From positions 1 to 39,177 of IMG/VR virus record IMGVR_UViG_2778261068_000002: 39,177 nt of DNA; one strand, 5' to 3'. The position numbers are program-made. Positions 3,001-6,000 of the stretch are shown one piece after another (position 1 is the first letter of the stretch; every line of letters starts with the position of its first letter). Origin of the DNA: a virus (lineage: Duplodnaviria > Heunggongvirae > Uroviricota > Caudoviricetes).

Positions 3001-6000
3001 TTCGCGCGGGGTATGCCCCTTAGTGCCACCTTTACCCATAGATAATTCCCGAAACAGTAATCAATTTTATGCGAACCATATAACGACCGCTTGCAACAAA
3101 AATGCATCTGTTGTATTTCATTTGTTAAAACTTAAATCACCTTGATTAACAACACGAAATGACGGGGTATTTATGATAAAAAAAATACTTGCTGTAACTG
3201 CGCTACTTAGTGGAGCCGTAATGGCTGATACAATGACGATCCCTGTAAATCTCGTTTCCTCAGAAGGAGTAGGGAAAAATATAGGGGAAATAACTATTTC
3301 AGAAACCAGCTACGGATTGCTGTTCACTCCTCATCTGAAAGAACTACCACCAGGGTTACATGGCTTTCATATCCATGAAAATGCCAGTTGTGATCCCGGT
3401 CTGATTAATGGAAAAAAAGTGCCAGCTCTTGCTGCCGGTGGGCATTATGATCCTGAACAAACAAATAAACATCTTGGGCCGTACAATCCGGAGGGCCATC
3501 TGGGTGATCTACCAGCACTCTATGTCAACTCAGAAGGAAATGCAGAAAACCCGGTTCTGAGTCCAAAAATAAAAAAAATAAGCCAGATAAAAGAACGGGC
3601 GATCATGATTCATGCCGGAGGGGATAATCATTCCGATTCACCTGCTCCTCTGGGGGGTGGGGGCGCAAGACTGGCATGCGGAATAATTAAATAACAAACA
3701 GCCTAAAACAATCACCGTCATAGCTGGCGGTGATTATCAGCGACCAATCACCACAACCTGACCACCATCCCCTTCGTCTGCCGTGCTGATCTCCTGAGAG
3801 ACCACGCGTGACCCCACGCGCATTTCACCGTACAGAACAGGCAGAACATTGCCCTGGGCAACCATGTTGTCCAGTGACGAGAAATACGTGTTCTGCTTAC
3901 CGTTATCCGTTGTTTGTGTGCGGGGAGTTCTGGGTTTAGGGGCCAGCATCTGGGCCACACCACCGAGCACCATACCGGCACCGAGAGAAAACAGGATGCC
4001 GGTCATACCACCGGCCCCAATGGCTGCCCCCCATGCTGCAAGGGTGGCTCCGGCGGTAAAGAACGATCCGGCAATGGCGGCTGCTCCCAGGACAATCTGG
4101 AATACACCACCTGACTTGGCCCCGGCGACTCTGGGAACAATATGAATCACAGCGCCATCAGGCAGAGTCTCATGTAACTGCGCCGTTAATCCGGACGTGC
4201 TGACATCCTGCCCGGCAATCCGTACCTGATACCAGCCGTCGCTCAGTTTCTGACGAAACGCCGGGAGCTGTGTGGCCAGCGCCCGGATGGCTTCAGCCCC
4301 CGTTTTCACACGAAGGTCGATGCGGCGGCCAAATCGTTGTAAATCCCCGTAAAGGCAGATGCGTGCCATGCCCGGTGACGCCAGAGGGAGTGTGTGCGTC
4401 GCTGCCATTTGTCGGTATACCTCTCTCGTTTGCTCAGTTGTTCAGGAATATGGTGCAGCAGCTCGCCGTCACCACAGTAAATGGCGGCATGATTCGGCAC
4501 CGATGAACCAAAACAGCACAGCAGCACATCGCCCGGCTGCGCCGCTGACAACGGCACCTGATACAGCCCTGTGGCCTCCAGATTATCCAGATAGAGATTC
4601 TGACCGTTACGCCACCAGTCATCCTCACGATGAAAATCCGGCATCTCAATCCCCGCCAGATGGTAAGCGTCCCGGAACAGCGTGTAACAGTCCGTCACCC
4701 CGTGCTCAAAGCGCCGCCCGGTAAGATGTGGCACACAGCGGAACTTGTGAATCGCCCCCCGGCAGACCAGCCACCACGGCAAATCACTCTGCACCTGCAG
4801 CCGCCGGTCAGCCTCACTCAGCCAGGGCAAACCTCCGGGATGACTGTGGACCAGCGCCACAATCTCACCCTGCATCTCTGCCCGCAGCCAGTCCTCCGGC
4901 GACAGCCTGAAATAATCCTCCGGCTCACCGGAGATATTCACGCAGGGAAAATATCTTTCTCCCTCCGGCGTTCTCACCACGAAGCCGCACGACTCCGCTG
5001 GCGCACATCGCCGGGCGTGCGCCAGAATCGCTGAATCTGTCTGTGTCATGGATTTACTGCGAAAGTTTGTTAATGGAAAGGAAGCCGCCAAAGTTGCCGA
5101 CGTTATTGCGGAACTTACAACCGCTCAGGCATTTGCTGCATTTATCCTTCGTGATATCGGACGTTGGCTGGTCATATTCATCCGCGACCGCCGGACCGTT
5201 ATAACCGCACTCATCACCGCGATAGGTCCAGGTGCAGGTGTTGGCCAGCATAATACGTCCCGGAAAAACAGCGCCATCCGTTTCCGTCGGCGTGGACAGC
5301 ACAAAGCTCGCGCTGACCGAGCTCAGTTCGCTGCACTGCTCAATGCGCCAGCGGCTGATCACCTCCTGCTCAGGATCGGCGTCACTGTTTCCGTTGACGA
5401 AATTCACCGCATCCAGAAAACGGGCGTAAACCTTACGCCGGACCACCGTTCCGCCGACCAGACTCTGCATATCTTCCACCATGCCGGTGACCATACCGTA
5501 CAGGTTAGAAACCGTCAGCGTGGGGCGCGTACTGGTGCCTTTGCCATTCAGTTCAAAACCACTCCCCTGAATGGGATACGGCTGATACTGTCGCCCCTGC
5601 CAGGTGACCGGCTCACCTTTTTCGTTCTGCTCATTACAGAAAAAATAACGTTCTCCACCGACCTCTGTCAGATCGATTTCCCAGAGCACCACGCTGGCCG
5701 ACTGCTCCGCACGGGTGCATTCATTCAGTGTTTCCTGCCGGATATCCTGCATCAGTTCACCACCTGTTCAAACTCTGCGCTGAACTCAACACGCAGCATA
5801 CTGACCCGCGACGACCATTTTGCGCAGGTCACCTTTATCTGCCGCCACTCATAAGGCGGCGTCCACAGAAAGGCTTTCCAGCCCCCGTGCTCAGCCAGAA
5901 ACGACTCCAGCGCCGTGGCCTCCCAACGGGGAACAGAAAACGTCACGCTGTACGTTTTCAGGTTGGAATTCAGCCCGGCAGGCGCTCGCTGGGAATAGCC

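Follow-up and report, generated by a model that had tools for sequence, protein, structure and literature searches.

The tail operon of the prophage studied here, which is lambda-like and almost certainly comes from Escherichia albertii, is interrupted between genes I and J by a sodC gene lying on the opposite strand. This raises the question whether such a position ties sodC expression to late transcription or simply accommodates a piece of ordinary prophage cargo. We analyzed the locus in the window, that is, the whole stretch of 39,177 nucleotides. Genes J and I are on the minus strand, and the spacer from the J start codon to the I stop codon agrees in measured length with the approximately 700 bp of the original prediction (Table 1). 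The opposite orientation of sodC and the AT-rich DNA upstream of it were also recovered as predicted, and a hairpin at the convergent ends of sodC and I, originally placed at 3711-3734, extends one base further on either side. The frame of J is open from its ATG to the left edge of the window.

Table 1 Features of the I-sodC-J region (positions are those of the window).
Feature	Position	Strand	Remarks
Gene J, 5' part (1,013 codons)	1..3039	-	Central tail fibre/host-specificity protein J; ATG at 3039
Whole sodC cassette (moron)	3040..3736	+	697 bp; takes the place of the 60-bp spacer found between I and J in lambda/21-type phages
AT-rich region upstream of sodC	3040..3172	+	133 bp; presumed promoter/regulatory region and ribosome-binding site
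sodC, periplasmic Cu,Zn superoxide dismutase precursor	3173..3694	+	173 aa
Predicted Sec signal peptide, MIKKILAVTALLSGAVMA	3173..3226	+	Cleavage before D19; inferred from alignment
sodC 3' hairpin, AATCACCGTCA tagc TGGCGGTGATT	3710..3735	+	One base lies between it and the I stop codon
Gene I, tail tip assembly protein	3737..4408	-	223 aa; Pfam Lambda_tail_I, E = 5.8e-28
Gene K, tail tip protein	4306..5049	-	JAB/MPN and NlpC/P60; Pfam Prok-JAB, NLPC_P60; overlap of ~100 nt with I

As judged from its sequence, sodC is an intact gene for a periplasmic Cu,Zn superoxide dismutase (SOD). The deduced protein matched Pfam Sod_Cu (PF00080) over profile positions 3-133 of 133 (E = 1.6e-32; 113.2 bits, with a curated cut-off of 28.9 bits) and PHROG 1975, "superoxide dismutase precursor, moron" (E = 2.6e-75). 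Its best match among solved structures was SodCI of Salmonella (6D52/1EQW; E = 7e-68), with which the metal ligands, the arginine, and the cysteines align residue for residue. In an alignment with SodCI, SodCIII, and SodC-F, the metal ligands (H66, H68, H91, H100, H109, D112, and H147), the catalytic R166, and the disulfide pair C73/C169 were invariant. The mature chains in the solved SodCI structures begin to align at residue 19-20 of the window protein, just after its hydrophobic N-terminus; from this we infer an N-terminal export signal, predicted to be of the Sec type. This signal peptide has no lipobox cysteine, unlike that of SodC-F of enterohemorrhagic E. coli (EHEC). An identical protein is annotated as SodC [Escherichia albertii] on 324 contigs. 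The allele was not found in a scan of GTDB species-representative proteins, which returned only chromosomal SodC proteins (Pseudomonas, Yersinia, and others) with at most 66% identity.

The boundaries of the insertion are sharp. I and J of the window share 94-98% DNA identity with those of lambda/21-type phages and E. coli prophages, and in lambda, 21, 434, and thousands of E. coli prophages only a 60-bp spacer separates the two genes. Homology to phage 21 is lost precisely at the start codon of J and the stop codon of I. Lambda, 21, 434, and the related E. coli prophages, whose matches span 61% of the query and no more, lack the cassette. Lambda gene I ends at 15444 and J begins at 15505, and the 60-bp spacer between them contains a terminator-like hairpin; the earlier statement that the two genes abut in lambda was thus wrong. 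The cassette has a GC content of 42.2%, and the 133 bp that precede sodC have 33.1%, whereas the values for J and I are 57.9% and 59.2%. The cassette therefore shows two traits by which morons are recognized, namely additional DNA separating genes that are neighbors in close relatives and a base composition unlike that of the surrounding phage genes.

Eight complete E. albertii-type chromosomes have identical cassette junctions with no indels, which rules out an assembly artefact, and the same junctions occur in the IMG/VR contigs L104-L109. None of 5,426 complete E. coli genomes carried this cassette. No target-site duplication and no direct or terminal inverted repeats were found at the cassette ends, and the 697 bp contain no further domain-bearing ORF. 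Cargo borne by a transposon or IS was consequently rejected, there being neither end repeats nor a transposase ORF. Among the tail-tip genes, H/M, M/L, and K/I overlap and L/K are 4 nt apart; the I-J junction is therefore the only real spacer. Taken together, the locus is very likely ordinary lysogenic-conversion cargo, i.e., a moron in which a foreign sodC unit stands in place of the I-J spacer, antisense to the late operon.

The same layout is widespread. In 37 of the 80 best sodC-bearing IMG/VR viral contigs, sodC adjoins J in antisense orientation; I lies on the other side in 34 of these loci, and the remaining three end at the contig edge. Another 14 of the best 80 loci show the antisense lom-sodC-L layout of the Gifsy-2 type, so that sodC is antisense in all 51 lambdoid IMG/VR tail-operon loci, the Gifsy-2 type included. 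The EHEC version of the arrangement (I, antisense sodC, J) is present in 547 of 5,426 complete E. coli genomes. The insertion is thus real but ordinary, because cargo genes of this kind in Salmonella and E. coli prophages usually sit at this site and point this way. According to the original prediction, a regulatory meaning would fall if I-sodC-J proved to be the standard layout of a well-characterised prophage family with no regulatory consequence; Fels-1, the EHEC and Stx phages, and the sodC-bearing enterobacterial contigs of IMG/VR, in which the layout is standard, show that this is largely so.

The 133-bp region upstream of sodC is presumed, by analogy with related prophage genes, to have a promoter or regulatory function. 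It contains a putative ribosome-binding site for sodC (GGGG at 3164-3167), its first ~15 bases serve on the opposite strand as the ribosome-binding region of J, and it shows no mismatch across eight related chromosomes. A consensus scan of 2600-4500 revealed no sigma-70 promoter on either strand, and a relaxed scan gave only a weak candidate, TAATCA-15-TATAAC at 3058-3084. sodCI of Salmonella has been reported to be regulated by PhoPQ. A possible PhoP box at 3112-3128 with three mismatches was discarded as being at chance level (105 such matches in the whole window vs 80 expected). Since no sigma-70 promoter was recognizable and the PhoP-box search remained at chance, autonomous transcription of sodC is proposed here by analogy. 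Prophage sodC-F has its own promoter and is RpoS-independent, with expression in log phase as well as inside cells (PMC2569942), and sodCI of Gifsy-2 is among the few prophage genes that are highly expressed while the lytic genes are silent (PMC7067206).

At the other end of the gene, the hairpin consists of an 11-bp stem and a 4-nt loop (-15.5 kcal/mol; z = -4.0; 0 of 200 shuffles as stable). It is not followed by a U-tract on the sodC strand and was not scored as a terminator in a terminator scan; therefore, it may not terminate sodC efficiently. With a single base separating the hairpin from the I stop codon, sodC transcripts could conceivably run into I and K as antisense RNA and repress tail-tip genes, either those of the resident prophage or those of related superinfecting phages. 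A precedent is STnc6030 of the Salmonella prophage BTP1, which is expressed in the lysogen, is antisense to structural genes, and acts in superinfection exclusion (PMC7067206). However, the same hairpin, with C-G, U-A, or U-G at one stem pair, follows the sodC genes of two relatives in non-phage contexts (L013 and L015; 69-73% identity). The hairpin thus travels with sodC and does not appear to have been shaped for an antisense-RNA role. Furthermore, the EHEC cassette ends beside I in a longer 3' spacer (190 bp) with two hairpins, one of them canonical and having a T-run, and the Fels-1 cassette has a terminator with a U-tract, which speaks for avoidance, not use, of read-through into I. We regard a function as antisense RNA as extremely improbable.

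Covariation in the hairpin was limited to the one pair and was not significant among the three distinct sequences, and Rfam gave nothing above noise in 2800-4000. Descent of the hairpin from that of the lambda spacer was also dismissed, the sequences being unrelated and the hairpin also following non-phage sodC genes.

No sigma-70-like promoter was detected on the tail strand within the cassette by the consensus and relaxed scans, and a gene for the Q antiterminator is present in the prophage. For these reasons, late transcription very probably crosses sodC in antisense to reach J, as had been proposed. The putative inverse coupling of sodC to late transcription, which the original prediction derived from this, is a generic consequence of the geometry of any antisense moron. 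A stronger version would hold that the antisense placement was selected, with head-on late transcription shutting off sodC upon induction, or with sodC transcription and its hairpin attenuating transcription into J and so adjusting how much J is made or when the tail tip is assembled. The geometry is real, sodC and I being convergent and J lying downstream of the cassette; the antisense orientation is uniform in the lambdoid IMG/VR loci; and in this window, on the minus strand read in the direction of the late operon, GUUUU comes after the hairpin stem.

On the other hand, this U run is broken by an A to G change at 3708 in seven of the eight related chromosomes, and a terminator in the late direction was dropped as a candidate. 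Lambdoid late transcription is antiterminated by Q, and the lambda spacer itself has a terminator-like hairpin. The antisense position has been called characteristic of morons (PMC7067206), and insulation of the tail genes from the cargo promoter explains it equally well. Transducing particles are still obtained from Fels-1 when a neo cassette interrupts sodCIII (PMC3920066), indicating that a phage tolerates altered antisense cargo at the I-J site. There is also no obvious benefit in stopping sodC in a cell about to lyse. Selection for regulatory coupling is, accordingly, quite unlikely.

Under the preferred interpretation as a moron, the late operon would be silent in the lysogen, and sodC would be transcribed from its own promoter within the upstream region. 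The SodC precursor would be exported through its Sec signal peptide, and the periplasmic enzyme would remove external superoxide, for instance that produced by phagocytes, to the benefit of the E. albertii host. After induction, RNA polymerase modified by Q would proceed from pR', pass the hairpin, and cross sodC in antisense, and J would then be translated from its own ribosome-binding site. The I-J spacer was probably used because its neighbors neither overlap nor nearly abut, which would make it the only such site in the tail-tip region. With sodC in antisense, its promoter would be prevented from transcribing J and the tail-fibre genes beyond it in the lysogen.

Whether the I-J spacer received sodC once or several times was judged from the cassettes of the window, Fels-1, and EHEC. 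A single ancient insertion, in which sodC entered the spacer once and then diverged and no hot spot exists, would fit the nucleotide identity of 65-69% between the window sodC and those of Fels-1 and EHEC, which is similar to the 72% found for gene I. However, I and J of the window share 94-98% identity with lambda/21-type modules in which nothing but the 60-bp spacer separates the two genes. In addition, the window cassette is not the same as that of Fels-1 sodCIII or EHEC sodC-F: only the coding regions align, the non-coding flanks of the three cassettes have no detectable similarity, and the junctions differ, Fels-1 retaining beside J the lambda-type spacer hairpin of its backbone, which the window does not.

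In a rough tree, the three sodC genes were not each other's closest relatives; the window SodC clustered with the non-phage L013 and L015. The nearest relatives of Fels-1 sodCIII were L100 (90% identity), whose contig also carries an IncFII replication gene, and L103, and the promoter and terminator regions of both match those of Fels-1 sodCIII. A single insertion therefore appears unlikely. The unrelated non-coding flanks, together with the closer plasmid and non-phage relatives of the E. albertii and Fels-1 cassettes, suggest repeated independent capture of sodC at the same spacer, always in antisense. A further reading makes the spacer a recurrent docking site for at least three unrelated antisense sodC cassettes from plasmids or non-phage loci and adds that, in E. 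albertii, read-through antisense RNA into I and K could damp tail-tip expression of the resident or a superinfecting phage; as a whole, we consider it very improbable.

E. albertii is an emerging attaching-and-effacing pathogen, and prophage SodC (sodCI) contributes to the virulence of Salmonella. The distinct E. albertii prophage sodC allele often adjoins type III effector genes (NleG); no discussion of this allele was found in the searchable literature. What is mildly new is the apparent repeated capture, always in antisense, of unrelated sodC cassettes by one and the same 60-bp spacer of the tail operon. The I-J spacer may therefore be a convenient natural system for studying how a late operon tolerates head-on transcription. 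The I-sodC-J layout itself is shared with Fels-1 and the EHEC and Stx phages, and current understanding is unchanged.

Among known systems, sodCIII of the Salmonella prophage Fels-1 (STM0924) has the same position and orientation as the window gene, in a lambdoid tail operon and antisense to the homologues of gpI and gpJ on either side. Its product belongs to the SodCI-like group of periplasmic Cu,Zn-SODs and has 67% protein identity to the window SodC, whereas the tail genes of Fels-1 share only 72-78% DNA identity with those of the window. sodC-F1 and sodC-F2 of EHEC O157:H7 (CP-933R/V) and the sodC genes of Stx2a phages likewise lie antisense between I and J, but SodC-F has only 57% protein identity to the window SodC. 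By alignment, its signal sequence carries a lipid-modification signal, while the window protein has no N-terminal cysteine; lipid modification of SodC-F is treated in a section of PMC2569942. sodC-F has been shown experimentally to protect against oxidative stress (PMC2569942). sodCI of Gifsy-2 in Salmonella is also a prophage Cu,Zn-SOD gene antisense within a tail-tip operon (62% protein identity), although it lies between a lom-like gene and L instead of between I and J.

More generally, the cassette resembles the lambda morons lom and bor, as defined by Hendrix and Juhala, in being extra DNA of deviating composition between neighboring genes. Morons have their own transcription signals and are expressed from the prophage to the benefit of the host, as described in PMC7067206 and PMC3594210. 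The window cassette differs from a typical moron in that its promoter is not recognized by consensus and its 3' hairpin has no U-tract.

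The window carries a nearly complete lambdoid prophage, whose gene content includes a Q antiterminator, a cI-type repressor, an integrase, lysis genes, and terminase genes. Within its tail-tip block, genes overlap at the H/M, M/L, and K/I junctions and are 4 nt apart at L/K; the only real intergenic gap, 697 bp from the I stop codon to the J start codon, is that between I and J. This would offer a simple explanation for the tolerance of insertions at that site. As stated in the original prediction, and at the coordinates given there, sodC lies in this gap antisense to I and J, and an AT-rich region precedes it. 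The GC content is 42% in the cassette, 33% in the 133 bp that precede sodC, and 58–59% in J and I, indicating that the cassette is compositionally foreign.

Features of the window
Feature	Position	Strand	Remarks
Gene J	from ATG at 3039	minus	1,013 open codons up to the window's left edge
I–J gap (sodC cassette)	3040-3736
sodC	3173-3694	plus	173 codons; Pfam PF00080, PHROG 1975
Hairpin	3710-3735		11-bp stem; -15.5 kcal/mol; z = -4.0
Gene I	3737-4408	minus	Lambda_tail_I, E = 5.8e-28
Gene K	4306-5049	minus	JAB + NlpC/P60
Gene L	5054-5752	minus
Gene M	5752-6081	minus
Tape-measure gene	6078-9182	minus
ORF, 243 aa	20838-21569	minus	N-terminal DUF1327
Four-tRNA array	22081-22390	minus	Met(CAT), Arg(TCT), Thr(TGT), Gly(TCC) in transcription order
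ORF, 249 aa	22534-23283	minus	PHROG 1521 (unknown function), E = 8e-85; no Pfam domain
Q antiterminator gene	23455-24228	minus
Lowest-GC stretch	~24100-24400		34% GC
LpxR-family gene	24629-25588	plus	Pfam E = 3.2e-39; PHROG 2309 E = 1.8e-227
Serine/threonine-phosphatase-like and NinG genes	25800-27067	minus

The sodC product is a full-length copper-zinc superoxide dismutase (113 bits against a Pfam cut-off of 28.9) and matched the PHROG family 'superoxide dismutase precursor' of the category moron (E = 2.6e-75). Its nearest solved structure is SodCI of Salmonella Gifsy-2 (6D52/1EQW; E = 7e-68). In an alignment with SodCI, SodCIII of Fels-1, and SodC-F of EHEC, to which it shows 62%, 67%, and 57% identity, respectively, the metal ligands, catalytic arginine, and disulfide cysteines were all invariant. 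Since the mature SodCI chain aligns only from residue 19–20, the first 18 residues are predicted to form a signal peptide, which has no lipobox cysteine. By its protein identities to the studied alleles, this allele is distinct from them, and no discussion of it for E. albertii was found in the searchable literature.

The I–sodC–J layout itself is not unusual. In Fels-1, sodCIII (STM0924) lies antisense between the gpI and gpJ homologues as in the window, and in the EHEC prophages and the Stx2a-converting phages that represent them, sodC is likewise antisense, between a tail assembly gene and a host-specificity gene. The EHEC junction was present in 547 of 5,426 complete E. coli genomes (coverage of at least 80%). 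Among the best 80 sodC-bearing viral contigs of IMG/VR, 34 had the complete layout and three more had J adjoining an antisense sodC at a locus cut by the contig end. Another 14 had the layout of Gifsy-2, whose sodCI is also antisense but sits between a lom-like gene and L; the other 29 were more distant or non-lambdoid. sodC was antisense in all lambdoid cases among these 80. Thus, comparison of the I–J junction in related prophages, the check proposed with the original prediction, placed the layout in a well-characterised family; as far as the layout goes, this is the outcome named there as counting against it. The EHEC genes, described as embedded in the lambdoid prophages CP-933R and CP-933V, have their own promoter, do not depend on RpoS, and are active during exponential growth, under anaerobic conditions, and within Caco-2 cells (PMC2569942). 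sodCI is among the few strongly expressed genes of Gifsy-2 while the lytic genes are silent, and an antisense position relative to lytic genes has been described as a hallmark of accessory (moron) loci (PMC7067206). The sodC cassette is a real feature that the original prediction described correctly; it is a typical moron of lysogenic conversion, and its site is a standard one.

Lambda, 21, 434, and thousands of prophages in E. coli match the flanks of the cassette at 94–98% identity, and in every case the middle 39% of the query is left unaligned. I and J had been said to abut in lambda; in fact, the end of I (15444) and the start of J (15505) are separated by a 60-bp spacer (15445-15504; L099:96-155) which, amid the tail genes, contains a strong terminator-like hairpin, AAACCGCC-N4-GGCGGTTTT, in the orientation of the late operon. 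A spacer of 60 bp with the same hairpin is found in phage 21 (L012:1839-1898), whose annotation calls it a terminator. Sequence homology of the window to phage 21 ends precisely at two points, the start codon of J and the stop codon of I; therefore, the cassette replaced the entire spacer, hairpin included. Neither a target-site duplication nor terminal repeats nor a transposase accompanied the cassette. In Fels-1, a hairpin of the lambda/21 type is kept between the sodCIII cassette and J (L001:4751-4800).

The predicted hairpin between the convergent ends of sodC and I is real. The stem-loop ATCACCGYCA...TGRCGGTGAT also occurs 3' of the closest non-identical sodC relatives (71–73% identity by database search, 69–71% by alignment), located on non-phage contigs with CcdAB, TraD, and serine-protease autotransporter genes (L013) or fimbrial genes (L015). 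It was therefore rejected as a lambda-spacer remnant or phage-shaped element. One stem pair is U-G, U-A, or C-G across the three sequences, a number too small to be statistically meaningful. The BLAST match to L013 reaches the final base of the cassette, indicating that the mobile unit ends on its right side just past the hairpin. No U-tract follows the stem on the sodC strand, and the terminator scan made no call for the hairpin. On the opposite strand, GUUUU follows the stem in the window; this run is interrupted in seven of the eight related chromosomes, and a terminator in the late direction was not accepted. Most likely, the hairpin forms or stabilises the 3' end of the sodC mRNA. A more exotic possibility is that sodC transcripts run on into I as antisense RNA, comparable to STnc6030 of BTP1, but the EHEC and Fels-1 cassettes have proper terminators in the equivalent position, which speaks against it.

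In the lysogen, sodC would be transcribed from its own promoter within 3040-3172, and SodC would protect the periplasm against exogenous superoxide. Promoter scans did not locate this promoter, PhoP-box matches were at chance level, and inside the cassette the tail strand showed no promoter-like site. Upon induction, Q-modified polymerase would pass the hairpin and then cross sodC in antisense, with J translated from its own ribosome-binding site. Such head-on lytic transcription would be expected to depress sodC, the inverse coupling originally proposed; however, this would apply to any antisense moron and has no evident benefit for a cell about to lyse. Fels-1 with a neo-disrupted sodCIII still makes transducing particles (PMC3920066), indicating that the I–J site tolerates altered antisense cargo.

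The identical protein is on record for 324 contigs under the name 'superoxide dismutase [Cu-Zn] SodC [Escherichia albertii]', and a few draft E. coli genomes encode it as well. In eight complete 4.6–4.9-Mb chromosomes (L004–L011), the cassette is joined to its flanks at identical positions, without indels, and in most of them the prophage also bears NleG-type effector genes. In the region matching window positions 2840-3935, the 697-bp cassette had 0–4 differing positions (none in the 133 bp upstream of sodC, 0–3 in the coding region) and the adjoining 199 bp of gene I had 3–15 in the seven intact prophages. Thus, the cassette is almost invariant and far less polymorphic than its tail-gene flanks. 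It was found in six IMG/VR viral contigs (L104–L109), in none of the 5,426 complete E. coli genomes, and in no deposited phage genome. In the E. albertii chromosome L006 (CP117580.1; locus coordinates ~4600-6700), the prophage is mostly deleted and the cassette is kept beside ~200 bp of J and ~130 bp of I, a few kilobases from gyrA; here the cargo has outlived its phage.

The window has a second antisense cargo gene, encoding an LpxR-family outer-membrane protein (lipid A 3'-O-deacylase family), between the Q gene and the phosphatase-like and NinG genes and just downstream of the lowest-GC stretch. The tRNA array lies downstream of Q and the 249-aa ORF that directly follows Q, at the position where Stx phages carry tRNAs and toxin genes; no toxin gene is present at this position. 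The DUF1327 protein is encoded between the array and the lysis genes.

The 94–98% identical lambda/21-type flanks and sharp break points argue for a separate insertion event in the window. The Fels-1 and EHEC modules may derive from a single old insertion, as sodC divergence among the phages compared, the window included (65–69% nucleotide identity), is near that of the adjoining I gene (72%). However, the Fels-1 unit, comprising upstream region, gene, and U-tract terminator (L001:4750-5480), recurs with its non-coding DNA at 3850-4600 of both L100, a locus on a contig with an IncFII replication gene and with a SodC protein 90% identical to that of Fels-1, and L103, where it adjoins umuDC-like genes; therefore, this unit moves between plasmids and phages. 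Additionally, a rough neighbour-joining tree grouped the window gene with L013 and L015, and Fels-1 with L100 and L103, leaving the EHEC gene alone. Repeated capture of sodC cassettes at I–J is thus the better reading and a fairly probable one, although only a modestly new point. The differing non-coding parts also speak against a single insertion: the E. albertii, Fels-1, and EHEC cassettes can be aligned in the coding region only. Beside J, Fels-1 still has the backbone hairpin, and the terminator of its cassette differs and includes a U-tract; neither occurs in the cassette of the window. In the EHEC cassette, the 3' spacer is 190 bp long and contains two other hairpins.
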